From Sphingomonas sp. (GTDB lineage Bacteria; Pseudomonadota; Alphaproteobacteria; Sphingomonadales; Sphingomonadaceae): 64,000 nucleotides of DNA. Under the pieces are notes generated by a model. That model worked only from the letters and a program-made list of their open reading frames with translations, searched no databases and was not told the origin of the DNA. Positions 29,580-61,947 of this stretch are shown piece after piece (within the stretch, counting starts at the first letter, position 1; each line of letters starts with the position of its first letter). The translations under genes and the position numbers were made by a program. The stretch spans positions 501,306 to 565,305 of the forward strand of contig CBDFKZ010000003.1 in assembly GCA_965248965.1 (NCBI GenBank), written 5' to 3'.

Positions 29580-30440
29580 TTATCCAGATAACGGCATTCG
29601 CCGCGGCATGGGAAGTGCCGATGCCCGACAAACGATGTCGACCCCGGCGATGGCTCAGGCGACATGCGCTGCGCCCGGGAAAAACATCGCGGCTGATTAT
29701 CGGATCGCCACGCACGCCAAGACCCTATGATCGCCGGCGGAAAGGTGGTAGCGTTCTCAACAAGGGCCGCGTTCGATAAACCAGATTTGGAGCAGAGGGC
29801 GCCCGCCGGCATCAGCCCGGCCTGTCGCACCCTGTCGGAAGTCTGTCTGCAGGGGGCCCGAAGCATGTGCGCACCTATTTCTGTCGCGTCGGTCGGTATG
29901 ACGTCCTGTCTCGAGCGCAGCGTTGCAGGCGCTGGAATTCCGGGACGTCTCGAACGGACTGCGTCTTCGCGGCGCCGGCCCAAGGCGCCCCAATGTTAAG
30001 GCGTTTTTGCGGTGATGCCGACGCAGCTGCGCAGGAATTCGCGTCACGCATGCCGATGCGCGTCGATCATGCTATATATATAGGAGAAACCGTGACGGTC
30101 CCGAAGCTTGGCCGGTACGGCTTAACATAGGTAATTTCCGAAGCTTTTCGCTGCCACCAAGACCGTCTATTCCCAATGATGGACCTAATGTGGCAGGGCA
30201 ATAAAAAGGGGCCGACTTCGTAGTAAAATCCGTTGTCAATCGCGAGTTTAGTCTGAATCGAAACTTGTTACATCGTATTCGGATCTCAACTCATACCGTT
30301 ATACGTATTTATAGATTTACCTCTGTTCCGCCCGTGTTGTATAGTCGATGTAGCAATTGACGAACATGATACATGACTGGCTCGGTAAGCGGGATTAATC
30401 TGTTGAAGAACTTAGGGAATTCAACTTGTTGTGCAGTCAG

Positions 30441-31106
30441 TTGACCAATTGCGAGAAGCCGGTTCAGGTATCGCGAAGCGTCTATGTGATCGACGATAAC
30501 GCTGACGTCCGCAAATCCTTGCACTTCCTGTTATCCGTATCGTCGATCACGGCGTGGCCCTTCGCTACCGCGACCGATTTCATCGAACAGCTTCCCGAGC
30601 TGGTGCCCGGACCCATTCTTCTCGACGTCCGCATGCCGCAGATCGATGGCCTCGAGATGCTGTCGATGCTCAAGGAGCGCGCGGTCGACTGGCCCGTCAT
30701 CGTGATGACGGCGCACAGCGATGTGCGCATTGCCGTCGGTGCGATGAAGCTGGGCGCGATCGACTTTCTCGAGAAGCCGTTCAAGACAGAACTGCTCGAA
30801 AAAGTGCTCGACCAGGCGTTCTCGCTCATCGATCAGGCAGACGGCACGCTCCGCCTGCGCGCAGAGGCGCGCGAGCGTTTTGACCGGCTGTCGCGGCGCG
30901 AACGCGAGGTCATGGCCAGCCTTGCCGATGGTGCGCCGAACAAGGTGGCCGCGCGCGAGCTGGGTCTCAGCGCCCGCACGGTCGAGATGCACCGGGCAAA
31001 TGCGCTGGGCAAGCTGGGCCTGAAGAGCATCGCCGAAGTCGTGAAGCTGGAAGTCGCGGCCGGTTTTCTCGACCGCTCCCTCAGATCGCAGAACAGCCTC
31101 AACTAG
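30441..31106 (+). CDS. FixJ/NarL-like response regulator
   Basis: VIDD, LLDVRMP phospho-Asp, FLEKPF, LSRRERE...NKVAA...TVEMHR LuxR HTH. Confidence 0.93.
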   Translation: MTNCEKPVQVSRSVYVIDDNADVRKSLHFLLSVSSITAWPFATATDFIEQLPELVPGPILLDVRMPQIDGLEMLSMLKERAVDWPVIVMTAHSDVRIAVGAMKLGAIDFLEKPFKTELLEKVLDQAFSLIDQADGTLRLRAEARERFDRLSRREREVMASLADGAPNKVAARELGLSARTVEMHRANALGKLGLKSIAEVVKLEVAAGFLDRSLRSQNSLN

Positions 31107-31152
31107 CGGTTCGACGTCCTGCCGGTGATGTCGAGCGGTTTGCGTCGGCGGA

Positions 31153-32343
31153 TCAAGGAAATACAGCGGCAACGATGCCGGCGACGTCCTGGGCGTCGAG
31201 TTCGTCGATGTTGACTGCCATGTCGGGCACGACGCTGTACCCTGTCGTAGCCCCCGAGCGGTCGAGCGTGACGCTCATGATGCGATAGGCGTCGCCGAAG
31301 CGGATCGCGGCAAGGCTGCCCACTGTGGCCGGACGGTCCGGGTCGGCAATCACGATCGTGCTTGGCGGCAGGCCGGCGCCGAGCGTGGCGCGGCAGACGC
31401 GCAGTGCAAAGGCCCGCGGCCCCGCACCGGCCGGCGTCTCGACAATCGCGCCGGTGGGCTCGGTGGCAATCAGCCCGCCCTGCAAGGGTGCGCCGAGCAC
31501 GGACAGGCGGCGAGGCTCGGGCGACATCGGCGCGTCGGATGAGCGCGGCCTGTGCTCGACGCGTTGAGGTTTCGCTTGCTGAAGCGCGGACGCCTGCCGA
31601 GCCGGATCGTCGGATTCGCGGGCGGCCGCGCGCAACTCCAGGCGCAGCTCGGCGATCTTGTTGCGCGTACGCGACCATCTTGCTTCCGGATCGGTGATCG
31701 TGGCCACGAAAGTGTCGAACTCACCCATCAGATAGCGTTCGGCGAGCTGCGCGACCAGCGTCTCGGTATCGGCCACGCCGAACAGACGACAGATCGATGC
31801 GAGTGTGGCATCGTTCCAGCGGGTCAGCGGCTTCTGTGCATTTTCGAGGCGAGAGAGAATGACGGCCGGAAGACCGAATTCCTGGTCCAGTCGGGCAATG
31901 GTCAGGCTCCGGTCCTTGTTTCGCTGCCACCGCAGGGCCGCACCGAGCAGAACGGCGTTCCGTTCGTCCTGAACGTCCCAACTTCGCGGGTCGTGAAAGG
32001 GGTCCGCCCAGGCCGCGATGTCGAAATCGGGCGCATCGATGTCGATCAGGAGATGCTCGGGGGCGATGCCGAGCGCGTCCGCGATGCGGATCAGTTCGTC
32101 GGCCCGTGCCGAGACTTCGCCCCGCTCGATCTTCGAAAGCCGGATGTAGGGAATGTCGGCCAGCTGATTGCTGAGCGCCATGAGCTTGTACAGTCCGCGC
32201 GACTGCCGATGCTCACGCACGCGGTTGGGAAAGACGAAGCCGCGATATCGGTCCGGGCAGATTTCCTCGAGCGAACGTGCCGTTGCCAGTTGCGCGTCAA
32301 GCGCGCGCGGCGACCGGCCCGTCCCTCGGCTTGCTGTTGCCAT
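31153..32343 (-). CDS. Regulator with two XRE HTH domains and a degenerate S24-like C-terminal domain
   Basis: NRVREHRQSRG...RLSKIERGE; LGAALRWQR...ILSRLENAQ; AFALRV...IVIADPD. Confidence 0.8.
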   Translation of the reverse strand: MATASRGTGRSPRALDAQLATARSLEEICPDRYRGFVFPNRVREHRQSRGLYKLMALSNQLADIPYIRLSKIERGEVSARADELIRIADALGIAPEHLLIDIDAPDFDIAAWADPFHDPRSWDVQDERNAVLLGAALRWQRNKDRSLTIARLDQEFGLPAVILSRLENAQKPLTRWNDATLASICRLFGVADTETLVAQLAERYLMGEFDTFVATITDPEARWSRTRNKIAELRLELRAAARESDDPARQASALQQAKPQRVEHRPRSSDAPMSPEPRRLSVLGAPLQGGLIATEPTGAIVETPAGAGPRAFALRVCRATLGAGLPPSTIVIADPDRPATVGSLAAIRFGDAYRIMSVTLDRSGATTGYSVVPDMAVNIDELDAQDVAGIVAAVFP

Positions 32344-32441
32344 TGCTCGTAACCCCGGATCGCGAAGGGGCCACCCGTCCCCCTGCCTGAGCCGATGATA
32401 TAGGAGCAATCGTGAGAATTCAATTGACGCTCAATTAGTTG

Positions 32442-32933
32442 CTAATGGAGCACTTCGCTGGCTGGTGGCGCGACCAGATTTGCCCATACGCTGTTGGCGG
32501 CAAAGGGAAGCAGACAGGTCGTCGGACACAGCCCCGATTGGTGGCGCGCCAGCCAGCCGGGTGAGAGCGGCGAGGGGTTGTCCGATGAGAACGCAACCCC
32601 GCCGCCGTCGGTAAAAATCCCCAGCGCCGGTGGCAGTGCGTTCACGGGCCAGCGGCGCGCGATTTCGGCGAGCAGGACCACGGCGGCATCCTCCAGCGCG
32701 GCAAGGCTCCAGCTGAGCGGGTCGCCGGAGGAAATCGGCGCCAGATCGACGACGCGACAACTGCCGTCCCATGCGCTCGTGGTCAGCCTTGAGCGGTCGT
32801 CCGTCCCGGTAAGGGTGGCACTCAGCAATATGGCGCTGTTTGCCGCGAGAACCGGTCTTGCATGGAGGGCCAGGCGCTCGGCGATCCGGACCAACGCGGT
32901 GGGGGCACCGGGGAGCTTGCGCGCCCTGGACAT
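32442..32933 (-). CDS. Hypothetical protein
   Basis: 163 aa ORF filling the gap between the sigma and XRE genes, same strand; no motif recognised. Confidence 0.65.
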   Translation of the reverse strand: MSRARKLPGAPTALVRIAERLALHARPVLAANSAILLSATLTGTDDRSRLTTSAWDGSCRVVDLAPISSGDPLSWSLAALEDAAVVLLAEIARRWPVNALPPALGIFTDGGGVAFSSDNPSPLSPGWLARHQSGLCPTTCLLPFAANSVWANLVAPPASEVLH

Positions 32934-33068
32934 CGGTGCGCCGTGATGCGGGACGCTCCACCCGTTGGACGACTTCATGCGGCGCTTATCCCTTATATCA
33001 ACAATGCAGTACTGCGCCTGCTGTCACGCAAGGGGAGCACCGCAAGTGCGGGTGCTCCCAAACGGCCG

Positions 33069-34169
33069 TCAATGCCGGGCGGCGCTGCCCGGCGCGTTTC
33101 CGCCCAGCCGCTTCATGGCGGGAACCGGAGCGGGATTGGGGGCAATCGAGTCGATATCGACAAGCGAGGGATGCGACGCGGCCACCACATTGGCAGGTAT
33201 GGCAATGACGCGCGACAGCGTGTTGTGCGGCTGGCCTTCGGCAGGCAGCATCGACACCTTGGGCTGCTCGCCGGACACCTTGGGCGCACGCGTGCGGGCC
33301 GGCTTTGCGTAGCTTTTGCCGTATTCGGCCATTACGGCGAACTGCGGCTCGCTGGCGGCCAGTTCGGCGATCGACCGCGAGGCGCGCTTGGTGATCTGGC
33401 GGACACGTTCCTTCGTGACTCCGGTCGTCTCGCCAAGCTGGTCAAGCGTGTCGGCCTGGAAGACCCGACGCTCGACGATTTCGCGATCGCGATCCAGCTT
33501 TTGCTCGAGCTTTTCGAGTTCTTCGGGGCAGATGCCGTGCGTCCGCGTGCGGCGGAGCAGGGCGGCCGCGCGTTCGACCGGATCGGTCACCGACAGGCGT
33601 TTTGCCCGCGGCCGCTTGCGCAGCTGGTCAAGCGCGGCGGCGCGCTGATGATTGATATAGCCGTCCACGAGCGACCGGGTCGCCGCATGGGCAAGATAGT
33701 CGGACGCAGCGGATTCGGTGCGCGCCAGCGCGCATTCGTCCTCGATGATGGACTCGAGCGTGGATTCCTCGCCGTCGGCGCCCGACGTGACCGAGTGAAG
33801 GGAGACCGTCGTCGCCGCGACCTTCTTTGCCGAGGGACGCTGGTCGGTCATGACCCGGAAGCGAAGCGACTGAAGCTCGCCGCGGATCTGCCAGTTGACG
33901 AAGGTCGTGAAGAGTGCCTTTTCGGGGTCGTAACCCTGGATCGCCCGGTGCACGGCGATGGCGCAGCACTGCTCGGCGTCTTCCCAATGGGCCGTCAGGC
34001 CGTACTGGCGGATGAAATGGCGGATGCGCGGTGCGATCAGCTTGAGGATCGAGGCGAACGCCCGGTCCACGGCGGCACGCTGCCGCGCGCTGGACACGTC
34101 GTCACCCTTCGGCATGCTCTCGATGACTGCCGCAACGGCCGCCTCCAGCGCAATCGTGGTCTTTGACAT
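33069..34169 (-). CDS. Divergent sigma70-family RNA polymerase sigma factor
   Basis: Region 2 EDAEQ...VHRAIQGYDPEK...FTTFVNWQIRGE; region 3.2 VSLHS...STLESIIED; region 4.2 TLDQLGETTGVTKERVRQI. Confidence 0.85.
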   Translation of the reverse strand: MSKTTIALEAAVAAVIESMPKGDDVSSARQRAAVDRAFASILKLIAPRIRHFIRQYGLTAHWEDAEQCCAIAVHRAIQGYDPEKALFTTFVNWQIRGELQSLRFRVMTDQRPSAKKVAATTVSLHSVTSGADGEESTLESIIEDECALARTESAASDYLAHAATRSLVDGYINHQRAAALDQLRKRPRAKRLSVTDPVERAAALLRRTRTHGICPEELEKLEQKLDRDREIVERRVFQADTLDQLGETTGVTKERVRQITKRASRSIAELAASEPQFAVMAEYGKSYAKPARTRAPKVSGEQPKVSMLPAEGQPHNTLSRVIAIPANVVAASHPSLVDIDSIAPNPAPVPAMKRLGGNAPGSAARH

Positions 34170-34338
34170 GGTTAACCCCCAGAAAAGAAAAGCAGGTTGG
34201 CCCCGCGCCAACCGTCGCCCTCACCACGTCTTTCTGGCATCGGAGAGTTAATAGGAGTGTTATCATCCTATACGAAAATATACGTAACCATCCTATAAAA
34301 GCATGGTGCTGAGGATGTTTAGCGGCGAGTGGACCCGG

Positions 34339-37479: not shown

Positions 37480-37639
37480 CACAGGTCCTTTGTGGCTTAG
37501 TGGTCTTATAGGATGGTGGCGCCCCGCAGGCGGCGCTTTGCCGAATTTTTGCCAAATGCCCCGACCCGGCAAAGTTCATCCTACAATTAAAGTCACGAGC
37601 GCCACCCGACGCTCAAATGCTTATTGCCGGAGAACCTTC

Positions 37640-38941
37640 TTGAGCCTCTATTCTGCCCTGTATGCCGGTGTCTCCGGTCTGAGCGCGCAAGCCAACGCAA
37701 TGGCCAGCGTCGCCGACAACATCACCAACATCAACACCGTCGGCTACAAGAATGCGGAAACGCAGTTCCGCACGCTGGTTTCCGACGGTCGTGGCAATGT
37801 GCCCTATTCGGCGGCTGGCGTCAGCGCGACGACGCGCACGCTCGTTTCAAAGGAAGGCGTTCTCCAGGCCTCGAGCAGCGTGACCGATCTCGGAATCGCC
37901 GGCGCCGGCTTCTTCGTCACGCGCGACGGCATCGGTCCGAATGCGAGCATCGCCTATACCCGGGCCGGCTCGTTCGCACCCGACACCCAGGGCTATCTGA
38001 AAAACTCGGGTGGCTATTTCCTGCAGGGCTGGCCGCTCGATTCGCTGGGCAATTTCGTCAACAGCGGCAGCACGGACGCGCTTATTCCGATCCGAGTCAC
38101 CCAATTGACGGGCACGGCTGCGGCGACGAGCAAAGTCGAAATGCGCGCCAATCTGGATTCCACGGCGACGGCCATCACCGGCCCCTATGCAGCGGGCAAC
38201 ATGGCGGCGGGCACGGTGGTGCCCCAGTTCTCGCGCCAGGTGGATGTGACCGATGCGCAGGGCGGCAGCCATGCCGTGACGCTCGCGTTCGTGAAAACCG
38301 GGTCGAACACCTGGGCCGGCGAAATCTATGCGGTACCGGCGACCGATGTATCGACACCCAATGGTCTGCTCGCCAGCGGCACCGTGAAGTTCAACGCGGA
38401 TGGGTCGCTCGACCTGACCAACTCCAGCCCTGCGCTCTTCGGCACGATCACACCTTCGTGGACCAATGGCGCGGGCACCGGACCGATCGTGCTGAGCCTC
38501 GGCACGAACGGCGGTCTCGATGGCCTCACCCAATTCGGCAGCCCGTCGGCCGTGATTTCGTCGACCGTCAACGGCGGCCTGCTCGGCAGCGTGGCGTCGA
38601 TGCGCATCTCTGAAGCGGGCGTCGTCAGCGCCGTCTTCGACGACGGGACGTCGCGCGCTGTGTTCCAGCTGCCCCTCGCCAGTTTCCAGAATCCCGACGG
38701 GCTTACGCGTTTGCCAGGCAATGGATTCGGCGAGTCGGACCAGTCGGGCAGCGTCGCCATCAACAGTCCCGGCGCCCTGGGGACCGGCAAGATCGCCTCG
38801 AACACCCTCGAAGCGTCGACTGTCGACCTGGCACAGGAGTTCACCAACATGATCCGGTTCCAGCGCGCCTATAGTGCTTCGTCCAAGATCATCACGACGG
38901 TGGACGAGATGCTGCAGGAAGTCAGCAACCTGAAACGATAA
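37640..38941 (+). CDS. flgE: Flagellar hook protein
   Basis: GVSGL...ADNITNINTVGYK, YTRAGSF, LEASTVDLAQEFTNMI; TTG start after GGAGA. Confidence 0.96.
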   Translation: MSLYSALYAGVSGLSAQANAMASVADNITNINTVGYKNAETQFRTLVSDGRGNVPYSAAGVSATTRTLVSKEGVLQASSSVTDLGIAGAGFFVTRDGIGPNASIAYTRAGSFAPDTQGYLKNSGGYFLQGWPLDSLGNFVNSGSTDALIPIRVTQLTGTAAATSKVEMRANLDSTATAITGPYAAGNMAAGTVVPQFSRQVDVTDAQGGSHAVTLAFVKTGSNTWAGEIYAVPATDVSTPNGLLASGTVKFNADGSLDLTNSSPALFGTITPSWTNGAGTGPIVLSLGTNGGLDGLTQFGSPSAVISSTVNGGLLGSVASMRISEAGVVSAVFDDGTSRAVFQLPLASFQNPDGLTRLPGNGFGESDQSGSVAINSPGALGTGKIASNTLEASTVDLAQEFTNMIRFQRAYSASSKIITTVDEMLQEVSNLKR

Positions 38942-38999
38942 TCGCATGAGCCGGGCAAGGAGCCGACGATAAGGGCTGCTACCAAGAGGAACTACAGAG

Positions 39000-41093: not shown

Positions 41094-41103
41094 GGAAAAA
41101 CCT

Positions 41104-49301: not shown

Positions 49302-49323
49302 ATCTTATCCCGGGAAATCGATC

Positions 49324-50091: not shown

Positions 50092-50109
50092 CTACAGTCA
50101 CTTGGTACA

Positions 50110-50125: not shown

Positions 50126-50267
50126 CTTAAATAAAACTGGGTGTTGATTTTGGTTAGCCTGTAATCCTTCCCACAATGAAGGGCGAGCCGGAAGACTTCG
50201 GTGCGTCGCGGGCCAGCGCTTCTGGCCCAGGTCGCAGAAGCGACCTTTCATCCAGAAGGACAAGATC

Positions 50268-52226: not shown

Positions 52227-52264
52227 CAGATCGAAGTTTCTTCGGGATCGCATTCACAAGAAAC

Positions 52265-52297
52265 AAAAAAAACAGGCCGGAAACGGCCTGTTTTTTT
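52265..52297. terminator. Bidirectional intrinsic terminator
   Basis: A8-CAGGCC-GGAAAC-GGCCTG-T7. Confidence 0.92.
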
Positions 52298-52380
52298 ATG
52301 TCGGGATAGGGACGGCGGGGAAGGTGGGAACCCGGAAGCAGTGGGGGCGGGGTGGGGGTGGGGGATGCTTCCGGGCTCCT
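52265..52380 (-). ncRNA. Candidate small RNA (or flgD 3' UTR element) with a C-rich loop
   Basis: TATAAT at 52386-52391 (minus strand); 14-bp stem starting at the predicted +1 with a 25-nt C-rich loop; U8 terminator. Confidence 0.55.
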
Positions 52381-52447
52381 GTTTCATTATAGAAAGGCGT
52401 CTTGCGTTGCGGCCTTTCTGCAAAAAAACTTTCTTACTTTCAGATGC

Positions 52448-53137
52448 TTACGCTGCAGAAGCGAGGCCGATCAGCGTGTTGATCGGCAATTGGGCACCGT
52501 TTACGTCGAGCGAAATTCCGCCGTTTTCCGCGCTGATGCCCCCGACCGTGCCGACGCTGTGGATCGTTACCGGCACGGTCGCCCCAGCGGCATTCCGAGC
52601 GGTCATCGACAGAGTGTAGGCACCTGCCGGCGCCTTGTCGCCATTGGCGAGCGTGCCGTCCCAGCTGAAGCTGCCCTGGCGACCGCCAAGGTTCACGTCG
52701 CGCGTGTCGACCACGGCGCCCGCGGCGTTGGTGATCTGCATCTTGCCCGAAGCTACGGCGACGTCCGCCGAATAGGTCCAGCTCGCCGGCTTCGCGCCCA
52801 GCCCGGCCACCGCGGAGTTGAATTCGGCGTCCTTGCCGATGAAGCCCGATGCCTGGGCCATGGTCTGGTTCGTCAGGCTGGCAAGAATGTCCTTCAGCGT
52901 CGACGATTGCTGGACGGTCTGTTCGACCTGCGAATATTGCACGAGCTGCTGGGTATATTGCGCGCTGTCCATGGGGCTCAGCGGATCCTGGTTCTGCATC
53001 TGCGTCGTCAGAAGCTTCAGGAACATGTTGAAATCAGCGCCGATTGTGCCCTTCGGCGATGTACTGGCAGTCGCCAGCGACTGCAGGCCGGTGCTCGCCG
53101 AAGCCGGAAGGCTGGCTGAGGGAGAGATGAGTGTCAT
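52448..53137 (-). CDS. flgD: Hook capping protein FlgD
   Basis: FLKLLTTQMQNQDPLSPMD, QYSQVEQ, FSWDG. Confidence 0.96.
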   Translation of the reverse strand: MTLISPSASLPASASTGLQSLATASTSPKGTIGADFNMFLKLLTTQMQNQDPLSPMDSAQYTQQLVQYSQVEQTVQQSSTLKDILASLTNQTMAQASGFIGKDAEFNSAVAGLGAKPASWTYSADVAVASGKMQITNAAGAVVDTRDVNLGGRQGSFSWDGTLANGDKAPAGAYTLSMTARNAAGATVPVTIHSVGTVGGISAENGGISLDVNGAQLPINTLIGLASAA

Positions 53138-53149
53138 GTCGGCTGTTTC

Positions 53150-54520
53150 CTATGCCATGAGGTTGTAACGGCCGCGCGTCTGCAGGGTGCGGAACGCGGT
53201 CTGGTCGAATATTTCGGGCTCTACATCGGCCCCGTTGCCCTGCCTGGGCGTGGCAGTCTGCCATGGCGTGCGCGGCTGGCCGCCGCTGCCTCGCTCACCG
53301 CTGTCGAAGCGCAAAACATGGGTTTCGCTGCGGAACCCGGCGTCGTTCAGGGCGCGCGACAGGTCGGCACTGTCCCGGCGCAACATGTCGAGCGCGGCCG
53401 GCTTGTCGGCAGCGAACACCGTGCTCAGGCCCCCGCGATCGTCGAACGACATGCGCACTTCGATCCGGCCGAGTTCGGCCGGCGAAAGATGGACGACCAG
53501 CTGGTCGCCGCCCGCAGAGATGCGCCGGACGACTTCCACGCCAAGATCATGGCCGAGGCGTCCGGGTTGTGCCGCGATGACCGGCTGCGCAGCCGGTGGC
53601 GCCTTTGCGTCCGGGGCATGGGTCGGCGCGCGCACGGACTCTTGACCGGTAAGGGCTGATGCACCCACCGACGTCTCGCCCTTGGCGGATGCCGCCGTCG
53701 GAAGCGCGAAACCCGCCGCATCGCCGTCAGGGCTCGCACGGGTCGCCTGACCAGTGGTCGGGTCGATGTCGTGTGCCGGGTGCCCCGAAATGCCGGTGAC
53801 GGCACCTTTGCCTGTCGCGGGATCGGGATCGACGCTGCCCCGGGTGCCCGGTGCGGCGCCGTTCACGCCCGGCACCGGCACGGCAGGAAGAGGAACGGCC
53901 GGCGACGCAACCGCCGCGACGGGCTCGCCGCCGAGTGCAGGATCGGGGTCTTTTTCGGCCTTTCCCGTGTCCGCCTTTCGCTCGGAAGGCTGCGCGTTGC
54001 GAACGGGTCCGGATCGGTCGAACGGCCGGGAAAGCACGACCATGCAGACACCGGCGGGCAGCGACGGGTCCGCTTCGCCTTCACCGGTATTTTTTCCAGT
54101 TTTCGGATCGCCCTTCGAGACAAGCTGGTCTGTCGGCTGATTCACTCCCTTTTGCACGGCGTTCTGGACAGGAACCGGCGGCGCCTCTCCGGTGCCGGGC
54201 GGAAGCAAGGGCTCAGCTTTGACGATCTGCGGCGACGGCGGCTCGAGCCCGGATGCGCCTGGCGTCGGTTCCGCCGGCACAGGCGCGCCGTCACTCGGAC
54301 CGGCGACCAGAATGTCCGGCCCGAAAAGGGGCGACGAGAGCGGCGTCTTCCCGCTTGCTCCCGTCGATGGTGCATCATTCTGCGTCGATGCGCCTGCAGT
54401 CCCCGCGAGCGACGAGTCGACCGCCGAGGCAAAGCCCGCGCTGCTTTCGCTTGCGGAGGCAGGGTCGGGTCGCAAGCTGGCAGGCGGTCTGACGGGTTGG
54501 GGCTTTACGGCGTAATCCAT
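53150..54520 (-). CDS. fliK: Hook-length control protein FliK
   Basis: Low-complexity Pro/Ala N-terminus and LSPAELGRIEVRM T3S4 domain; upstream of flgD. Confidence 0.9.
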   Translation of the reverse strand: MDYAVKPQPVRPPASLRPDPASASESSAGFASAVDSSLAGTAGASTQNDAPSTGASGKTPLSSPLFGPDILVAGPSDGAPVPAEPTPGASGLEPPSPQIVKAEPLLPPGTGEAPPVPVQNAVQKGVNQPTDQLVSKGDPKTGKNTGEGEADPSLPAGVCMVVLSRPFDRSGPVRNAQPSERKADTGKAEKDPDPALGGEPVAAVASPAVPLPAVPVPGVNGAAPGTRGSVDPDPATGKGAVTGISGHPAHDIDPTTGQATRASPDGDAAGFALPTAASAKGETSVGASALTGQESVRAPTHAPDAKAPPAAQPVIAAQPGRLGHDLGVEVVRRISAGGDQLVVHLSPAELGRIEVRMSFDDRGGLSTVFAADKPAALDMLRRDSADLSRALNDAGFRSETHVLRFDSGERGSGGQPRTPWQTATPRQGNGADVEPEIFDQTAFRTLQTRGRYNLMA

Positions 54521-54590
54521 GCAATGCCTCTCATCGGGGCGCGCAGGCCCTTGTCTCTCTTATAGACGGCTGGCGCTGCAGACGGCCGAT

Positions 54591-56672
54591 TCAGCCGATC
54601 GTCCCCAGCGCCCGCACCCGCGCGCGGGCGTGAATTTCATTCTGCGACAGCACCACGGTGGCGGGCCGCACCCGCTCGATGATCGAGCGGACGAAGGGCC
54701 GGATCGACGGATTGGTCAGCATGCACGGGATGTCACCATTCGCGGCCAATCGGTCGTATGTTTCGCGCACAGCGGCAATGAAGGCCTGCAGGCTCGACGG
54801 TGCCATCGCCAGATGACGGTCGTCGCCCTGGCCGACGATGCTTTCGGCGAATTCATTGTCCCAGTGCGCCGACAAGGTCAGGATCGGAATCGTCCCTTCC
54901 CGGGTTTGCTGGGCCGAGATCTGGCGCGCCAGCCGGCTGCGGACATGCTCGGTCATCAGCGTCAGATTCTGGTGCAGCGGCGCGGCCTCGGCGATCCCTT
55001 CCATGATCGTCGGAATGTCGCGGATCGAAATGCCTTCGGACAGCAGGTTCTGCAGGATGCGCTGGACGCCCGAGATCGAGATCTTCGACGGCACGATTTC
55101 GGAAACGAGCTTCTCTGAATCCTTGTGGATTTCGGTAATCAGCTTGTGCGTTTCGGTGAAGGACAGCAGGTCGGCGATATTGTCCTTGACCAGTTCGGTC
55201 AGGTGGGTCGTGATGATCGTGCCGCAATCCACCACCGTCAGGCCGCGGACGCCGGCCTCGTCCCGCATGGCGCGGTCGATCCACAGCGCCGGCAGGTTGA
55301 ACACGGGTTCGCGCGTTTCCTCGCCTGAAATGCCGAGATTGCCCCCGTCGGCGTTGATGACGAGCAGCTTGTCCAGCCGGATCTCGCCGCGTGCCGCCTC
55401 GGTCTCCTTGATGTAGACGACGTATTCGTTGGCCTGCAGCGCCATGTTGTCGATGATGCGGACCGCGGGCAGGACGAAGCCGAAGTCGAGCGCCATCTGG
55501 CGGCGCAATGCCCGAACCTGGTCGTCGAGGCGCGGCTCGGCCGTGGAATCGTTGATCAGGGGCAGCAGCGCATAGCCGATTTCCAGTCGAACGGAGTCGA
55601 TCGCCAGCGTCCGGGAAACCGGTTCGTCGGCCTGTTGCGCCGCGGCACCGGCGGTGGCTTCGACAAGACGCTCGGCCGCGACCTCGGCTTCGGCGCGCTT
55701 GGTCATCTTCCACGCCAGCCAGCCGGCAAGTCCGGCGAAGGCGGCAAACGGGATAAAGGGCAGTCCCGGCATGATCGCCAGGCCGCCCATCAGCGCCGCT
55801 ACCATGCCGAAAGCCTTGGGATACCGGCCAAGCTGGACGCCGAGAGCGGCGCCCGTCTTGCCGCTGACGCCGCCCTTCGACACGAGAAGTCCGGCTGCGG
55901 TCGATACGATCAGGGCGGGGATCTGGCTGACCAGCCCGTCGCCGACGGTCAGGATGGTATAGCTGTGGAACGCCTGGTCGATCGGCACGCCGTGAATCGC
56001 CACGCCGATGATGAGGCCGACGATGATGTTGATCGCCGTGATCATCAGGCCGGCAACCGCGTCGCCCTTCACGAACTTCGACGCACCGTCCATGGCGCCG
56101 TAGAACCCGCTTTCGGCTTCGATCTCGCTGCGGCGTTCGCGCGCCTGCTGTTCGGTGATCATGCCCGCCGACAGGTCCGCATCGATCGCCATTTGCTTGC
56201 CGGGCATGGCGTCGAGGCTGAAGCGCGCGGCGACCTCTGCAATTCGGCCCGAACCCTTGGTGATCACGACGAAATTGATGACGACGAGAATGGCGAAGAT
56301 GGTGAGGCCGATGACCGGTTCGCCCCCCATCAGGAATTCGCCGAACGCGCCGATGACGCCGCCGGCAGCCTGGCTGCCTTCGTGCCCGTGCGACAGGATC
56401 AGCCGGGTCGATGCGAGGTTGAGGCCCAGCCGCAGCATCGTGGCGATCAGCAGGATCGTCGGAAACGCCGACAGTTCGAGCGGCTTTTCGATGAACAGCG
56501 CCGTCATGAGGATCATCACCGACAGGGTGATCGACAGCGCAAGCCCCATGTCGAGCATCCACGCCGGCAATGGCAGGATCAGCATGGCGATGATGGCGAC
56601 GACCGAGCCCGCCAGCGCGATGTCCGGCGTAAGCCCGAAGCGCCGGGTCAGGTCGTTCAGTATCGATTTCAT
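54591..56672 (-). CDS. flhA: Export gate protein FlhA
   Basis: RIAEVAARFSLDAMPGKQMAIDADL, FYGAMDGASKFVKGDA, TVGDGLVSQIPAL. Confidence 0.98.
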   Translation of the reverse strand: MKSILNDLTRRFGLTPDIALAGSVVAIIAMLILPLPAWMLDMGLALSITLSVMILMTALFIEKPLELSAFPTILLIATMLRLGLNLASTRLILSHGHEGSQAAGGVIGAFGEFLMGGEPVIGLTIFAILVVINFVVITKGSGRIAEVAARFSLDAMPGKQMAIDADLSAGMITEQQARERRSEIEAESGFYGAMDGASKFVKGDAVAGLMITAINIIVGLIIGVAIHGVPIDQAFHSYTILTVGDGLVSQIPALIVSTAAGLLVSKGGVSGKTGAALGVQLGRYPKAFGMVAALMGGLAIMPGLPFIPFAAFAGLAGWLAWKMTKRAEAEVAAERLVEATAGAAAQQADEPVSRTLAIDSVRLEIGYALLPLINDSTAEPRLDDQVRALRRQMALDFGFVLPAVRIIDNMALQANEYVVYIKETEAARGEIRLDKLLVINADGGNLGISGEETREPVFNLPALWIDRAMRDEAGVRGLTVVDCGTIITTHLTELVKDNIADLLSFTETHKLITEIHKDSEKLVSEIVPSKISISGVQRILQNLLSEGISIRDIPTIMEGIAEAAPLHQNLTLMTEHVRSRLARQISAQQTREGTIPILTLSAHWDNEFAESIVGQGDDRHLAMAPSSLQAFIAAVRETYDRLAANGDIPCMLTNPSIRPFVRSIIERVRPATVVLSQNEIHARARVRALGTIG

Positions 56673-56682
56673 CGGACGGTGC

Positions 56683-58023
56683 TCAATGCGCCGGCTCGAC
56701 GGCAATGCCGGCCTCGATGAATGTCCTCAGCTTGTTGCGCATCGTGCGCACCGAGATGCCGAGGATCGTCGAGGCCGTGGTGCGGTTGCCGCCGCAATGT
56801 TCGAGCGTGTGAAGGATCAGGTCGCGTTCGACATCGTCGACGGTGCGACCGACGAGGGACGCGGCCGGATCTCGGCCGATCGTGGGCTTCGATGCCCCCA
56901 GAGGCTTGCCGTCGGCCGCGACGATCGCGCTGCCCTGGATCCGTTCGCCCTGGGCAAGCAGGACGGCGCGATGGATCACGCTTTCGAGCTCGCGGACATT
57001 GCCGGGCCACTCATGGCGGGTGAGCGACTGTATGGCATCGGGCGCGAAGGGACGCGCGGCCAGGCCGTTCGCGGCGGCGAACCGCGCGCCGAAATATTGC
57101 GCGATGGCGATGATATCGTCGCCACGTGTGCGTAGCGGCGGTATCGCTACGCGGACGAGGGACAGGCGCGTAAGCAGGCTGCCGAGGAACTGCCCCTTGG
57201 CGACGAGGGCGTCGAGATCGACGGACGTGCCGGCGATGATGCGCGCGTGCGACATCGGGGCGCCGCCTTCGGCGGACCTCGCTTGCTGCACCTGGAGCAT
57301 CGTCAGCAGGCGCGCCTGGGTGGCGAGCGCCAGCGATCCGATTTCGCGCAAATAGATGGTGCCGTACCGGGCGTCCTCCAGCCCGCCACGGCGCGGCGCG
57401 ACGGCACCGGCGAAATCGCCGGCGCCATGGCCGAACAGTTCGGAGTCGATGATGTCGCTGCTCGTGCTGGCGCAGTCGACGGTCAGGAAGCGTCCGGTCC
57501 TTGCCGATGCGGCGTGCACGGTGCGGGCGAAGATTTCGCGACCGCTGCCGAGCTCCCCGCTGATGATAATGGGTGCGCTCGACGGCGCCATGGCAAGGCC
57601 GAGCGACAGCGCGCGACGCAGTTCCGGGTCGTCGCCGACGAGCCGGGCGCCATGCCGGGCCACCGACAGGATTGCCGCTGCAATGAGATCGGCCTGCGGC
57701 GGCAGCGGGACATAGTCGCGCGCGCCGCCCCGAATGGCGGCAACGGCGCGGTCGGCCGACGCGTCGATACCGCAGGCGATGACCGGGACGGCGATATGTT
57801 CGGCGCGGAGTTGCGCGATGAAGCGCGCAACGTCCTCGGCGACGTCGATCATGACAAGATCGCTGCCCGTGTCGCGCAATTTGCGAAGCGCCGTGCCGGC
57901 GTCGTCCGCCATGACGACATTGGCGCCGGTCTCTCGGGCCATCGCGGCGGCGGTGCGGAATTCGCTGCCGGGCGCGCCGACCAGAAGCATGTGAATGGAT
58001 CCGGTAGCCAGCACCACGCTCAA
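56683..58023 (-). CDS. flbD: FlbD-like regulator with degenerate AAA+ domain
   Basis: Receiver + AAA+ + Fis HTH (ILGISVRTMRNKL), downstream of fliN as in Caulobacter; catalytic motifs altered. Confidence 0.88.
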   Translation of the reverse strand: MSVVLATGSIHMLLVGAPGSEFRTAAAMARETGANVVMADDAGTALRKLRDTGSDLVMIDVAEDVARFIAQLRAEHIAVPVIACGIDASADRAVAAIRGGARDYVPLPPQADLIAAAILSVARHGARLVGDDPELRRALSLGLAMAPSSAPIIISGELGSGREIFARTVHAASARTGRFLTVDCASTSSDIIDSELFGHGAGDFAGAVAPRRGGLEDARYGTIYLREIGSLALATQARLLTMLQVQQARSAEGGAPMSHARIIAGTSVDLDALVAKGQFLGSLLTRLSLVRVAIPPLRTRGDDIIAIAQYFGARFAAANGLAARPFAPDAIQSLTRHEWPGNVRELESVIHRAVLLAQGERIQGSAIVAADGKPLGASKPTIGRDPAASLVGRTVDDVERDLILHTLEHCGGNRTTASTILGISVRTMRNKLRTFIEAGIAVEPAH

Positions 58024-58394
58024 TGCTCCTGGCGGACGATTTCGGTCAGCGTTACGCCAAGCGAATTCTCAATCATCACGACCTCGCCGCGGGCGATGAG
58101 GCGGTTGTTGACGAAGATGTCGACCGGCTCGCCGACGCGGCGATCGAGCTCGACCACGGCGCCCGCTTTCAGCTGCATCAGCGCGCCAATCGCAATGCGT
58201 GACCTGCCGAGCACGGCCTGTACCTTGACGGGCACGTCATAGACGGCCTCCAGGCGTTCGGCCGCCGCCTCGGGCGTCTCGCTTACCGGGTCGGGCCCGC
58301 CGAAATCCTCGAGCGGCGGCGGGTTACCGGGAAGGTTTTCCGCCAGCATCACTTCCTGCGCTTCGCTGTCCATGTTTTGGGGAGTCTCCATCAT
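58020..58394 (-). CDS. fliN: Motor switch protein FliN
   Basis: AVYDVPVKVQAVLGRS...GEPVDIFVNNRLIARGEVV. Confidence 0.95.
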   Translation of the reverse strand: MMETPQNMDSEAQEVMLAENLPGNPPPLEDFGGPDPVSETPEAAAERLEAVYDVPVKVQAVLGRSRIAIGALMQLKAGAVVELDRRVGEPVDIFVNNRLIARGEVVMIENSLGVTLTEIVRQEH

Positions 58395-60031
58395 GCGTTC
58401 ATCCACTGGCGGATCACCGACGCCGCTTCGGCGGGGCTTTCACTGACCGATGTGCCGATCTTCTTGAGCGACGACAGTTTGATGCGGCCGTCGACCTGGG
58501 CGAGGGCGATTTCCTGGTCGAGCAACGCGGTGTCTTCGCCCGCGACCCGCATCGCGTCGATCTGTTGCAGCGCTTCGGGGTCGCCGCTGGCGATCCGCGT
58601 CGCGAGTGCCTGCGCGTCGGCCGTCTGGTTCGTCAGCAGGCGTTCGTCGTCGGCACGCTGGCCGGGCTTGGGTCGCAGCATGCGCATGGCAATCAGTCCC
58701 GCCCCGGCGATCACCAGCAATTTCAGCAGGCTGAATATCTGATCGGCCGAGATCCAGGAGACATAGGACATGAGCCCGCCTTGTCCGTCGCCAGCCGCGT
58801 CGGCTGCGGCAAAGGCCATGTTCTCGACGACGACGCTGTCACCGCGTGCCTGGTCGAAACCGACCGCATTCTGGACGAGGCGCGTCAGCCTCGCGATCTC
58901 GGGTGCCGGCAGGCCTTTCTTGCCGCCGTCGACCATGACCGCGACGGTCAGCCGCGTCAGCTTGCCCGGTGCGCGCACCGTGATGGTGTGCGTCTGGCTG
59001 TTCTCGTACGTCGTGTCCTCGGACGTCTCGTTGCGTGCGGACTTGCGGGTGTCGCCGCCGCCAGCGCCGGTCCCCGCAGCGCCCTGGTTTTCGGGGAGCT
59101 GCGTGCCGACGGAAACGCCGGCCGGGGCAGGGCCGTTCTCGTTGCTCTGGTCGCCGCTTTCGACGGTGACCTGATGGCCGATCACCTGCTTGTCGGGATC
59201 GAAGACATTGGTTTCCTCGCGGGTCTGGTCGCGCGCGACCTGAGCCGACACTTCGGCGCGAACCTTGCCAATGCCGACGATCGGTTCGAGCATTCCTTCG
59301 ATCTGCGATCGAACACGGTTCTCGATGCCGGTCTGGCGCTCGTCCGCCGCAGAGGCGCCTGCGTCGTCGGCATCTCCCGCCCGCGCGAGCAACGCGCCGG
59401 TCTGGTCGACGATCGACACCTGTTCGGCCGAAAGTTCCGGCACCGACGAGGAGACGAGATAGCGGATCGCCTGTACCGCGCTGGCGGGAAGCCGTCCGCG
59501 CGTCTTGAGCGACACGGCCGCGGTGGCCTTGCGCGTCTCGGCGGCGAACATCGCCCGTTCGGGCATGACGATATGCACGCGCGCCTTGGCCACATTGTCG
59601 AGGCTCTGAAGCGACTTTTCGAGTTCGCCTTCGATCGCGCGCGTCTCGTTCATGCGCGCGCGCGACGACGACACGCCGAACGGCTGTTCCGCGTCGAGCA
59701 CTTCGTAGCCGACCTTGCCGCTCAACTTGTCGGCAGCCATCGCCATGCGCAGCTCGGGCAATTTGTCCTTCGGCGCCATGATCGACGTGCCATCGGCGGA
59801 AAGCTGGAACGGCACGTTCTGCGCAGTCAGCTTGGCGGTGATCGCCTGCGCGGTCGAGGCATCGAGGTCGGTATAGAGAAAGCCCATTTCGCTGGATCCG
59901 CCGCGCATGGCGACGGTCGCGAGCACGCCGAGGAGGGCGAGGGCGACACCGCCCATGATGAAGAGGCGCCGCGACCCCAGCTGCGCGAAAAATTTCTGCA
60001 ATCCGTCCAAGACCGGCTCCGCCACTGACAC
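58391..60031 (-). CDS. fliF: MS-ring protein FliF
   Basis: Two TM helices, GYEVLD, RAIEGEL, ARVHIV, RLTVAVMVDG, NAVGFDQARGD. Confidence 0.96.
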   Translation of the reverse strand: MSVAEPVLDGLQKFFAQLGSRRLFIMGGVALALLGVLATVAMRGGSSEMGFLYTDLDASTAQAITAKLTAQNVPFQLSADGTSIMAPKDKLPELRMAMAADKLSGKVGYEVLDAEQPFGVSSSRARMNETRAIEGELEKSLQSLDNVAKARVHIVMPERAMFAAETRKATAAVSLKTRGRLPASAVQAIRYLVSSSVPELSAEQVSIVDQTGALLARAGDADDAGASAADERQTGIENRVRSQIEGMLEPIVGIGKVRAEVSAQVARDQTREETNVFDPDKQVIGHQVTVESGDQSNENGPAPAGVSVGTQLPENQGAAGTGAGGGDTRKSARNETSEDTTYENSQTHTITVRAPGKLTRLTVAVMVDGGKKGLPAPEIARLTRLVQNAVGFDQARGDSVVVENMAFAAADAAGDGQGGLMSYVSWISADQIFSLLKLLVIAGAGLIAMRMLRPKPGQRADDERLLTNQTADAQALATRIASGDPEALQQIDAMRVAGEDTALLDQEIALAQVDGRIKLSSLKKIGTSVSESPAEAASVIRQWMNA

Positions 60032-60105
60032 CGGGCTGCAAAGCCCGTCAGATCATTATAGGAGGAAGCGGTGGGAAAAATTTGCCGGGTAGGAAATTCT
60101 TGCCG

Positions 60106-60786
60106 TCAGGCGGGGTCAGCCGTCGCCTCGGCCGCCGCCGGCACGTCGAGGCCAAGTTCGGTCAGGATCGCCGCCCGGCGCGCCTCGGCGTTGAGCGCAA
60201 GGCCTCCCTGCTCCCAGGAAATCAGGGCATCGCCAATGGCCTGTGTTGGATCGCCGATGGCAAGCAACGACAGGCGACGCCGCTCGCGCCCCTGCCGCCC
60301 GGCGATCAACTCCTCTGTCGCCTCGAGCAGCGACGGATGAACCCGGATCTGCAATTCCTGCCCGCGGGCAACTTGTGTGAGCACACGGCCGATGGCTTCG
60401 TCGATAGCTGCAGTCGGGTCGCTTTCCAGCGCGCGAGCAGCCAGCCCCTCTGCAGCGGCCATCGCGACTTCGGCGGCGGCGCGCGACGTGCGCAGCTCGA
60501 CGGCCTCGAATTCGTTCTCCACGGCTTCGATCGAGCTGTGCAGTGCGTCGGTTGCCGCGAGCATCGCCGCGTTGACCTCCCCGCGCGCATGCGCAAGTCC
60601 GGCCTCGAAGCCTTCGGCACGGGCAACCGCGACATTCGTCTCGAGCATCGATCGCAACAGGTCGACCTCGGCGGTCAGGGCCATGATGCGTTCGCTGTCG
60701 TTCTGTCCGGGCGCCGCGCGCGCGGGGCTGGCCGCCGCGAAGACGCGATCGAAAGCAAACGGCTTGATGTGAAATGACTGGTCCAA
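60106..60786 (-). CDS. fliH: FliH (FlbE-like)
   Basis: IKPFAFDRVF N-terminus, GFEAG, GDALISWEQGG. Confidence 0.85.
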   Translation of the reverse strand: MDQSFHIKPFAFDRVFAAASPARAAPGQNDSERIMALTAEVDLLRSMLETNVAVARAEGFEAGLAHARGEVNAAMLAATDALHSSIEAVENEFEAVELRTSRAAAEVAMAAAEGLAARALESDPTAAIDEAIGRVLTQVARGQELQIRVHPSLLEATEELIAGRQGRERRRLSLLAIGDPTQAIGDALISWEQGGLALNAEARRAAILTELGLDVPAAAEATADPA

Positions 60787-60813
60787 ATGCCGTCCCCGTC
60801 CCGTTCGCTCAGT

Positions 60814-61863
60814 CTACAGGATCATCGCGTCGTCGTTCTTCGGATCGACGAGCATGATTTCGCCGCTGTCGGCGAGTTGCTTGGCAAGCCGGACGAGTGC
60901 GCTTTGAGCCTCTTCGCATTCGCGCGCGCGCACCGGACCCATCGCCGCCATGTCTTCCTTGAGCAGCTTGGACGCGCGTTCGGTCATCGCCCCGAAGAAA
61001 AGGTCGCGCATCGGCGCCGGCGCCCCCTTCAGGGCGAGCGCCATTTCGCGCTTGTCGGCGTTGCGGACGATCGTGGCGACGGCCGGTTGCATCAGGTTAC
61101 CGAGATCCTCGAAGGTGAACATCAGCGCGCGGATCCGTTCGGCAGCGTCGGGCGCCTTTTCGTCGAGCGCCGACAGCATGGCTTCCTCGGTCGCGCGGTC
61201 GAGCGCGTTGAACACTTCTGCCATTGTTTCGTGCGGGTCGCGCCGCTGCGAGCGTGACAGGTTGCTCATGAACTCGTTCTTCAGCGTATGCTCGACCTCG
61301 ACCAGCACCTTTTTCTGGACGGTATCCATGCGGAGCATGCGCATGATGACGTCGACCGACAAGTCGCGCGGCAGCTCCGCCAGGACGCGTGCGCCGTGGT
61401 CGGGCTTGAGCTTGCTCAGGATGACGGCGACGGTCTGGGGATATTCGTTCTTCAGATAGTTGGCGAGGACGTTTTCGCTGACGTTGGACAATTTGTCCCA
61501 CATCGTGCGGCCTGAGGGGCCGCGGATGTCCTCCATGATTTCCTTAACCCGGTCGTCGGGCAAGATGCCGTCGAGCAGCCGCTCGGTCGTTTCGAACGAT
61601 CCATGCAACGACGCCATGCTCGAAATCTCGCCCGAAAACTGGACGAGCAAGTGTTCGACGACGACCGAGGGCACACGGCCCAGCTGCGCGATGGCCGCCG
61701 ACAGCTCGCGCACCTCGTCGTTGGACAGCATTTCCCAGATGGGCGCGCCGTGTTCCTTTCCCAGCGCCAGCATCAACGCAGCAGCCTTTTCGTGGCCGGA
61801 AAACTTCTTCAGCTCGGCAGGCGGATTACTCAGCGCCAACATACTCTTTCGGCTCCCAGACAT
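60814..61863 (-). CDS. fliG: Motor switch protein FliG
   Basis: EKAAALMLALG, EYPQTVAVIL, MFTFEDL, NMTE-like AMTERAS, EEAQ. Confidence 0.96.
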   Translation of the reverse strand: MSGSRKSMLALSNPPAELKKFSGHEKAAALMLALGKEHGAPIWEMLSNDEVRELSAAIAQLGRVPSVVVEHLLVQFSGEISSMASLHGSFETTERLLDGILPDDRVKEIMEDIRGPSGRTMWDKLSNVSENVLANYLKNEYPQTVAVILSKLKPDHGARVLAELPRDLSVDVIMRMLRMDTVQKKVLVEVEHTLKNEFMSNLSRSQRRDPHETMAEVFNALDRATEEAMLSALDEKAPDAAERIRALMFTFEDLGNLMQPAVATIVRNADKREMALALKGAPAPMRDLFFGAMTERASKLLKEDMAAMGPVRARECEEAQSALVRLAKQLADSGEIMLVDPKNDDAMIL

Positions 61864-61947
61864 ATAATGAAGGTTAACGCGTCATCACGGCGGCACATGC
61901 GTCTATTATAGGAAGGAGAAGACGCGCGGAGCTCAAGCGGTGATCTT

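Follow-up and report, generated by a model that had tools for sequence, protein, structure and literature searches.

How does a Sphingomonas control its flagellar genes? In sphingomonads this is almost unstudied, and regulation has been assumed to be Caulobacter-like, with CtrA, FlbD/sigma-54 and FlbT/FlaF as its components (PMC8921679). The window considered here, 64,000 nucleotides of the Sphingomonas contig CBDFKZ010000003.1, contains an alpha-type flagellar cluster at 30-64 kb. A 12-base box, TCCTATAATAGA, precedes nearly every flagellar and chemoreceptor operon in this Sphingomonas and its relatives, and the locus raises the question of what this box is and which RNA polymerase holoenzyme reads it. 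The box is, we infer, a -10 promoter element without a -35, and a sigma factor encoded within the cluster itself is a candidate reader. No earlier description of the box or of the cluster sigma was found in the literature searched.

The window is Sphingomonas DNA with a GC content of about 65%: its FliM is 93% identical to that of a Sphingomonas metagenome-assembled genome, and its close relatives are all Sphingomonadaceae. We compared it with 16 genome loci around fliM and with 80 metagenome loci around fliG, the latter divided into 41 sphingomonad loci (L017-L057) and 39 loci of other alphaproteobacterial type (L058-L096, 56-60% identity). Seven further loci were taken around homologues of the sigma factor and four around map, and orthologous intergenic regions were aligned. 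The alignments comprised 41 loci for fliG, 31 for fliF, 17 for fliL/flgF, 16 for the gap between a 72-aa open reading frame (ORF) and a FliL-like gene, 11 for flbT/flgE, 8 for fliK and 6 for a site at 52386. Genes were assigned by Pfam, tblastn and synteny; gene calling by GC content at third codon positions (GC3) was dropped as too noisy.

The box is far more frequent in the window than dinucleotide shuffles of the same sequence predict. TATAAT occurs 6 times against 1.37 expected, always between 44 and 62 kb, and YCTATAA 10 times against 0.81, nine of the ten lying in the cluster and the tenth in coding sequence; CCTATA occurs 22 times against 2.07, about half of these being coding GCC-TAT (Ala-Tyr). 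In the alignments of 8-41 orthologous gaps (6 at the 52386 site), the box is the island of identity amid unalignable flanks. A class-weighted profile of the promoters, T C/T C T A T A A T A g a, forms one block worth about 19 bits; it contains no conservation at -35, only a weak AT-rich zone further upstream, and it is enriched in A/G 7-8 nt downstream of the hexamer. After correction of start codons, the box lies 25-70 nt before the start codon, with a Shine-Dalgarno sequence in between. A first-pass annotation, made from the letters of the window, had listed a series of such hexamers, all of which are present at the positions that it gave. Its proposal of a recurrent -10-type box with a pyrimidine or CC prefix and no shared -35 is borne out by conservation in up to 41 genomes, and both the spacing and the downstream purine fit.

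Three boxes lie in very short divergent gaps (76-139 nt), in which CCTATAATAG(A/G) reads TCTATTAT or CCTATTAT on the other strand. Upstream of fliG-fliH (60106-61863, minus strand; FliG domains were confirmed for fliG), CCTATAAT at 61905-61912 on the minus strand is separated by 41 nt from the fliG ATG at 61863, and the same bases read TCTATTAT at 61902-61909 on the plus strand for a divergent, beta-propeller-like gene that starts at 61948; (C/T)CTATAATAG(A/G) is invariant here in 41 sphingomonad loci with diverged flanks. The second gap separates fliL, fliM, a DUF6468 gene and a gene for an MgtE_N protein (44629-47115, minus) from flgF-flgG-flgA-flgH (47255-50091, plus), with CCTATAAT at 47185-47192 on the minus strand and TCTATTAT at 47182-47189 on the plus strand; CCTATA(A/T)TAGA is invariant in 17 loci. 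The true start of fliL is a TTG at 47115 that follows a conserved GAAAGG, which leaves a leader of about 70 nt. In the third gap, CCTATAAT at 44174-44181 (minus) precedes the 72-aa ORF (43926-44144, minus), whose stop overlaps the ATG of a gene for a 623-aa signal-peptide (secreted) protein (42055-43926, minus), and reads TCTATTAT at 44171-44178 on the plus strand for a gene encoding a FliL-like secreted protein (44221-44625, plus). CCTATAATAG is invariant in 16 loci at this position.

The remaining boxes serve one direction each. For the operon fliF-fliN-flbD-flhA (54591-60010, minus), CCTATAAT lies at 60055-60062 (minus), and (C/T)CTATAAT is found in 28 of 31 loci; the conserved start of fliF is a TTG at 60010 with a GGGG-type Shine-Dalgarno sequence in front. 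The fliK-flgD operon (52448-54520, minus) has TCTATAAG at 54559-54566 (minus), 38 nt from the ATG at 54520, with YCTATAA(T/G) invariant in 8 loci. Before flbT-fliI-fliJ and a 318-aa gene (to 37479, minus; fliJ is assigned as fliJ-like), CCTATAAG at 37505-37512 (minus) is 25 nt from the ATG at 37479; CCTATAA is invariant in 11 loci as the sole conserved block on the flbT side of the gap, and the flbT box was found again in L097, L099, L100, L106 and L107. On the opposite side, flgE-flgK-flgL (37640-42012, plus) is preceded by the variant CCTACAAT at 37580-37587 (plus), 52 nt from the TTG at 37640; the ATCC-TACAAT that had been reported there is thus conserved in this form, in 9 of 11 loci, while the flgE box is CCTATAAT in some genera (L100) and YCTATWW-type sites occur in L105-L107. 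TCTATAAT at 52386-52393 (minus) precedes a small-RNA candidate, with CTATAAT at the same position in 6 genomes. Support is weaker for CCTATATC at 32397-32404 (minus), before an XRE-type regulator (ATG 32343, minus), where CCTATAT or CCTATAC occurs in three of five genomes. Several gene assignments of these sites needed correction: the 44174 box serves the 72-aa ORF and the 623-aa protein and no named fli gene, the 52386 box serves the small-RNA candidate, and fliL and fliF begin at the TTG codons given above.

The symmetry of the box in the three divergent gaps permits a different interpretation, namely that the conserved block is the operator of a dimeric factor binding the palindrome CTAT-A-ATAG, with the real promoters elsewhere and the XRE-type or FixJ-type regulators adjoining the cluster as candidate binders. 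Regulator genes do flank the cluster, and CCTATAATAG(A/G) is a near-perfect inverted repeat in these gaps. However, only the left half, CCTATAA, is conserved at flbT, fliF and fliK, and at fliL the species alternate between TATAAT and TATATT, which breaks the palindrome but keeps a TAnnnT hexamer on both strands. Most box gaps contain no second conserved block able to serve as a promoter, and the spacing to the Shine-Dalgarno sequence and the start codon, together with the downstream purine, fits a -10 element. We therefore consider an operator very unlikely: because flbT keeps only CCTATAA and not the palindrome, a -10 element is the better description, and the near-palindromes would represent back-to-back -10 elements serving both operons.

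As is expected of a -10 element of the sigma-70 family, the box is conserved relative to the flanking non-coding DNA. It resembles the extended -10 of E. coli (TGnTATAAT) in that extra bases upstream of the hexamer compensate for a missing -35, but that class has TG at -15/-14, whereas here -15 to -13 read T, C/T, C, that is (T)CC/TC. The sequences indicate independence from a -35 hexamer: there is no information at -35, and TTGAC occurs in only 1 of 41 motility upstream regions.

The specificity of the box was assessed on the gene calls of 11 loci and the window, by counting YCTATWW or CCTACAA on the sense strand up to 200 nt upstream. The box was found at 30 of 41 motility transcription units against 2 of 81 others (p ~4e-17), and TTGAC has the reverse bias, with 1 of 41 against 15 of 81 regions (p 0.011); orthologous promoters are not independent of one another, so that these p-values overstate the case, but there is no doubt about the direction. 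Enrichment over other promoters, on which the first-pass annotation had staked its proposal, is thus found. Within 795 kb of sphingomonad loci, flagellar-marked DNA has 0.231 YCTATAA per kb, against 0.075 per kb in the remainder. Of the 14 matches in the remainder, ten belong to one more conserved box promoter, that of flgI, which lies just past the right end of the window (YCTATAAGA in L024, L027, L029, L032, L038, L039, L046, L048, L052 and L057), and the remaining four are near the chance expectation derived from the shuffle rate. No excess of the box over chance was present in about 190 kb of non-flagellar flanks. Perfect boxes (CCTATAAT/G) also precede genes for MCP chemoreceptors and for outer-membrane proteins of the Alginate_exp family that adjoin the cluster in L100 and L105-L107, in the four genera Stakelama, Novosphingobium, Sphingosinicella and Edaphosphingomonas.

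Which sigma factor might read such a promoter? The cluster contains a gene of its own for a divergent member of the sigma-70 family (33069-34169, minus), encoding 366 aa. Its product has a canonical region 4 (Pfam Sigma70_r4) and a recognisable region 2 (FTTFVNWQIRGELQS; ILKLIAPRIRHFIRQYGL...DAEQCCAIAVHRAI..YDP.KAQFTTFVNWQIRGELQSLRFR), and one homologue has Sigma70_r2, so that both regions of the sigma-70 family are present. TIGR02937 aligns over residues 37-268 with 39.7 bits, just below its cut-off of 42.9. Beyond this superfamily match no NCBIfam subfamily cut-off is reached: RpoH scores 32.9 against 323, FliA/WhiG (TIGR02479) 25.2 against 189.6 and SigB/F/G 24 against 234. The AlphaFold (AF2) model is confident in both domains, and its top Foldseek matches are SigA, SigB, WhiG and sigma-28, with TM-scores of only about 0.2. 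Region 2 is 34% identical to that of E. coli FliA and also aligns to RpoS, and the best sequence matches in the PDB are to RpoS region 4. By these features the protein is an orphan, group-3-like sigma, and its homologues, from Sphingomonadales, are annotated only generically.

The position of the gene is constant. In 9 genomes from at least five genera (the window, L011, L097-L100 and L105-L107), the sigma gene always follows flbT-fliI-fliJ and the gene of about 320 aa, and it is often followed by a gene of about 175 aa and an XRE-type gene. These three genes, the last encoding a two-helix-turn-helix XRE-type protein of about 380 aa, form a conserved module (31153-34169, minus, in the window; L097-L100, L011 and L106). 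In two genomes the gene of about 175 aa directly downstream of sigma has a perfect box of its own. Its product, 178 aa in the window (32442-32978, minus), matches no protein family; 13 homologues were found, with an invariant C-terminus (RWP.NALPP..GIFTDGGGVAFSSD.PSPLSP.WL), and its AF2 model (pLDDT 47) is unusable. One might guess that it is an anti-sigma factor.

The upstream region of the sigma gene is a case of its own. The first-pass annotation had counted TATTAA at 34248 as its box promoter, but the conserved feature of this region (34248-34299) is a CtrA-like TAAC-N7-TTAA (34248-34262, minus), extended to (T)TAAC-N7-TTAA, together with reverse-oriented boxes on the plus strand, CCTATAC at 34267-34273 and CCTATAAA at 34292-34299; TATTAA is the right half of the CtrA-like site. 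The arrangement ATATAGGA-N2-3-(G)TTA-N7-TTAA is conserved upstream of sigma in 9 genomes. A conserved hairpin (34195-34213) lies just before the G-rich Shine-Dalgarno sequence of the gene, in a layout (34170-34338) that is likewise kept in 9 genomes.

Sigma-28 (FliA), with its promoter TAAA-N15-GCCGATAA, is one of the nearest known parallels. It too has a dedicated promoter class for flagellar, chemoreceptor and regulator genes and a sigma gene in the cluster; it too uses a long extended -10, sharing CC-ATAA (GCCGATAA against TCCTATAA of the box); and, as with flgM, a cognate promoter precedes the gene downstream of sigma in some genomes. The box class nevertheless differs in that it lacks the TAAA -35, has T for G in the -10, and includes not only late genes but also early ones (fliF, fliG, fliL, flbT-fliI). 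The boxes do not fit the sigma-28 promoter pattern, TCCTATAA matching 6 of 8 positions, and the cluster sigma, with 366 aa including a C-terminal extension of about 90 aa, stays below the FliA/WhiG cut-off and is not a member of that subfamily. RpoS-type promoters (TCTATACTTAA) have C at -13 and a dispensable -35. The box shares with them the T(-14) C(-13) prefix and an extended -10 without a conserved -35, but its regulon is motility and not stress, and the match of the cluster sigma to RpoS in the PDB covers region 4 only. RpoS is not known from Alphaproteobacteria.

The CC prefix suggests yet another family, as the -10 elements of RpoH promoters have a C-rich prefix, and a sigma-32-like factor of the RpoH type would then read the box. 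The highest named-family score of the cluster sigma, about 33 bits, is indeed to RpoH, but it falls so far under the family cut-off of 323 that the protein is not RpoH. Of the RpoH promoter pattern (a CTTGAA-like -35 with CCCCATNT or CYTATNT), the -10 is compatible with the box, whereas a -35, CTTGAA-like or other, is missing altogether. We know of no regulon confined to motility that is under a heat-shock sigma. In Sinorhizobium meliloti the motifs of RpoH and RpoD promoters do overlap (PMC3616915), and even so we regard an RpoH-type reader as extremely improbable.

Housekeeping promoters are the more serious comparison. The consensus is CTTGAC-N17-CTATAT in S. meliloti and TTGACGS-N10-14-GCTANAWC in Caulobacter. 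The box has the C at -13 and the TATAW core in common with these promoters, and YCTATAT is what map and gyrB use; but the housekeeping class combines a TTGAC -35 with a poorly conserved -10, and in the motility class this is reversed. The tRNA gene of the window (9666-9830, minus) has TTGACA-N18-AATGAC upstream, a textbook -35 with a weak -10, which is the opposite of the motility architecture.

On the one hand, RpoD might read the box as an optimal extended -10 with a preference for C at -13, so that the flagellar promoters would be strong, -35-independent RpoD promoters and the cluster sigma would serve other targets or do no more than modulate. The optimal hexamer for sigma-70 is universally TATAAT. 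At map, (C/T)CTATAT(C/T) is separated from the ATG by exactly 6 nt in 4 of 5 genomes (16645-16659, minus, in the window, and L101-L104) despite differing upstream neighbours and flanks, and gyrB in L010 (~17735-17749) has CCTATATG in the same layout. These boxes suggest leaderless mRNAs, and they show that some holoenzyme for essential genes accepts C(-13)-TATAT without a clear -35; the warning in the first-pass annotation that a housekeeping sigma could read the motif was well founded. Furthermore, TTAGAC stands 17 nt upstream of the CCCTATAT of secY, class II flagellar genes in Caulobacter rely on the housekeeping sigma together with CtrA (PMC6180460), and the overlap of RpoD and RpoH motifs in S. 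meliloti (PMC3616915) speaks for RpoD as well. On the other hand, the box occurs in only 2 of the 81 non-motility upstream regions, which favour TTGAC, and positions -14 to -8 are almost entirely invariant, which alphaproteobacterial sigma-70 promoters do not usually show, the sigma-70 -10 being reported as poorly conserved in S. meliloti (PMC3616915). A constitutive promoter at every motility operon would leave no route for the CtrA dependence that has been reported for Sphingomonas motility (Francez-Charlot 2015, as relayed in PMC6180460 and PMC8116508), as most box promoters have no other conserved site, and the fixation of a sigma gene in the cluster in 9 genomes would be left unexplained. 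We see RpoD as the main rival to the cluster sigma, a possible reader though not a probable one.

The cluster sigma is the reader that we favour, on what we judge to be an even call, and several points weigh against it. A housekeeping holoenzyme uses the -10 of the map and gyrB type without a clear -35, and TATAAT with C at -13 would suit an alphaproteobacterial housekeeping sigma as well. The box upstream of the sigma gene is reverse-oriented, towards the 3' end of the preceding gene. The region 4.2 helix of the sigma, TKERVRQITKRA, is conserved and near that of sigma-70, yet the box promoters show no -35. Finally, the enrichment statistics count orthologous promoters, which are not independent, and the background sample amounts to only about 270 kb. 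An assignment from sequence alone is not possible, because map and gyrB indicate that a housekeeping holoenzyme can use such a -10. Control at the level of a sigma factor is nonetheless the simplest scheme, because most promoters carry no other footprint while motility is reported to be CtrA-dependent.

The ancestral regulators have left traces that bear on this scheme. Before fliF, two GGCA-N5-T(T/G)CC sites (60092-60104 and 60074-60086, minus) lie 11 nt upstream of the box, appearing as GGCAAAAATTTCC and CGGCAAAAACTGCCG in sphingomonads, and the palindrome CTAGGCAGAATTTGCC (GGCA-N5-TGCC; 47203-47218, minus) lies 10 nt upstream of the fliL box, where CACTAGGCAGAAnTTGCC is nearly invariant in 17 loci. 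In its extended form, (CT)AGGCA-N5-TGCC(TAG), the palindrome shows deep conservation upstream of fliF in clusters of alphaproteobacterial type, and in sphingomonads it is also found upstream of fliL. In the loci of other alphaproteobacterial type that have usable upstream sequence, with the gene order fliF-fliG-...-fliN-flbD-flhA, fliF is typically preceded by TAGGCAAAAATTGCCTAG and then by a CtrA-like TTAAC-N7-TTNAC, without a box; sphingomonads keep the GGCA-N5-TGCC at fliF and have one at fliL too, but 10-11 nt downstream stands the box and not a CtrA site. The palindromes are probably FlbD (ftr-like) operators, an assignment for which we assume the ftr consensus and draw on conservation. 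They were also considered as sigma-54 promoters, a reading that was rejected because their GG-GC spacing is 8 nt and not 10, and because GG-N10-GC (TGGCAC-N5-TTGC) occurs in none of the cluster gaps. CtrA sites (TTAA-N7-TTAA) are absent at fliF, fliG, fliL, flbT, fliK and the 72-aa ORF in sphingomonads, and CtrA-like sites occur in the sphingomonad cluster only before the sigma gene and flagellin.

FlbD itself has changed as well. In the window flbD (56683-58023, minus) has degenerate AAA+ motifs, with GDFAGA for GAFTGA, RE for DE in Walker B, and GSGRE in Walker A (Lys lost). GAFTGA is lost in every sphingomonad locus with an alignable segment, the substitutes being mostly GAFPGA, GDFAGA, GAFEGA and GAFDGA, and in a few sphingomonad FlbDs the segment is more degenerate or deleted. 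Walker B, where aligned, has R plus an acidic or other residue in place of DE, mostly RE or RD, and Walker A is variable. The FlbDs of the other alphaproteobacterial loci are all canonical, with GESGTGKE, GAFTGA and DE in Walker B. As FlbD represses fliF in Caulobacter (PMC3096577), a repressor-only role for the sphingomonad protein is plausible by analogy.

These observations can be combined into a mechanism. RNA polymerase would recognise the motility promoters via the extended -10 block alone, without a -35 hexamer, and would start transcription at the purine that follows the box by 7-8 nt; where a divergent gap is very short, each strand would obtain its -10 from the near-palindrome CCTATAATAGG. 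One box class, T-C/T-C-TATAA-T(-AGA), would drive almost the whole motility regulon of Sphingomonadaceae: flgI, fliG, fliF, fliK, fliL, flgF, flbT, flgE, accessory genes, neighbouring chemoreceptor genes and a small RNA. The holoenzyme would carry the cluster sigma, as a functional analogue of FliA, which would have replaced the CtrA + sigma-70 and FlbD + sigma-54 promoters in the sphingomonad lineage, with FlbD surviving only as a DNA-binding modulator at fliF and fliL. We tentatively propose, at somewhat less than even confidence, a single-tier regulon in which the orphan cluster sigma, acting on the -35-less TCCTATAAT box of early and late flagellar, chemoreceptor and small-RNA genes, replaced the ancestral hierarchy; FlbD would be degenerate and sigma-54-independent, and sigma itself would stand under the CtrA-like site, with the reverse box perhaps providing feedback.

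Compared with the Caulobacter hierarchy (CtrA for class II, FlbD + sigma-54 for classes III/IV), sphingomonads share the gene set flbT, flbD, fliF/G/N and flhA and, like other alphaproteobacterial-type clusters, the GGCA-N5-TGCC operator at fliF. They differ in the absence of CtrA boxes at fliF, fliG and fliL and of sigma-54 promoters, and in using one box class for early and late genes. The sequences argue that the Caulobacter-like scheme does not apply to sphingomonads.

Flagellin (50268-51122, plus, followed by two genes without known identity) stands apart from the class. The site near 50172, which had been listed as a weaker member, belongs to a promoter region (50158-50177, plus) with a degenerate CCTGTAAT at 50158-50165 and a conserved TTTCCACAAT ending at 50177, the CCNATAWT lying 13 nt upstream of TTTCCACAAT. 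This block is conserved in 11 loci, but its first site is variable at -12, and its second departs from the box at both -12 and -10, so that these sites are box-like and not members of the class. Further upstream in the same gap (50092-50267, plus) there is a CtrA-like TTAACCTTAAATAAA at 50121-50135 (TTAACC-N4-5-AATAAA). The 5' untranslated region of about 85 nt is structured, with conserved hairpins GGGCCAGCGCTTCTGGCCC and GTCGCAGAAGCGAC, which may be the target of translational control of the FlbT type. Public metatranscriptome contigs cover only flagellin, and one of them starts at 50219, about 35 nt past the predicted start; they lack start-site resolution, as do the RNA runs that hold the locus, which behave like metagenomic DNA.

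The small-RNA candidate, about 115 nt long (52262-52380, minus), lies under the 52386 box, in the gap where flgD and a 148-aa gene converge. It consists of a 5' hairpin, whose C-rich loop is 25 nt long, and then an intrinsic terminator (minimum free energy -47.9 kcal/mol, z -9.0). Single-sequence folds show the hairpin in the orthologues too, on stems that differ in sequence and with a GCCCCCC(U)U loop; RNAalifold predicted no pairs, as MAFFT could not align the length-variable loops. Rfam contains no family for it: matches in 52200-52460 are sub-threshold, and only the tRNA reaches a gathering score in the window. Because the C-rich loop is complementary to the GGGGG/GGGGA Shine-Dalgarno sequences of sigma and other flagellar genes, feedback by pairing with these mRNAs is conceivable as a speculation.

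The rest of the window is more conventional. Its first 30 kb contain housekeeping genes (secY, adk, ribosomal proteins, a tRNA, glnA, map and oxoprolinase). A partly AT-rich stretch of 846 nt without genes (29580-30425) separates the oxoprolinase gene from a FixJ-like response regulator (30426-31106, plus); it contains CCTATATATATAG at 30077-30084 and TCTATAA at 30309-30315, both on the minus strand. No convincing ORF was found in this stretch, and the listed 30077 site is not confirmed as a box promoter, no gene having been found downstream of it. The 72-aa, 623-aa and FliL-like (44221-44625) proteins match no Pfam family, and all three genes are kept in relatives. An 820-aa ORF at 42055-44517, within which the 44174 box would be coding sequence, was rejected as a high-GC artefact, because conservation starts only at the ATG at 43926 and a plus-strand gene fills 44221-44625.

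In kind, the box is a familiar thing, a regulon-specific promoter, probably paired with an alternative sigma. Three features appear to be new: an architecture reduced to a -10 with a TCC prefix, a scope that takes in early as well as late genes, and the protein family to which the candidate reader belongs. Should RpoD be the reader, the box would still be an unusual class of extended -10, with C at -13/-14, and one would have to ask how motility is regulated at all. Should it be the cluster sigma, the Sphingomonadaceae would possess a new sigma/promoter pair and provide a clean case of wholesale promoter replacement in a conserved gene cluster, and the engineering of Sphingomonas, a genus of industrial and ecological importance, would gain a compact, orthogonal promoter without a -35.

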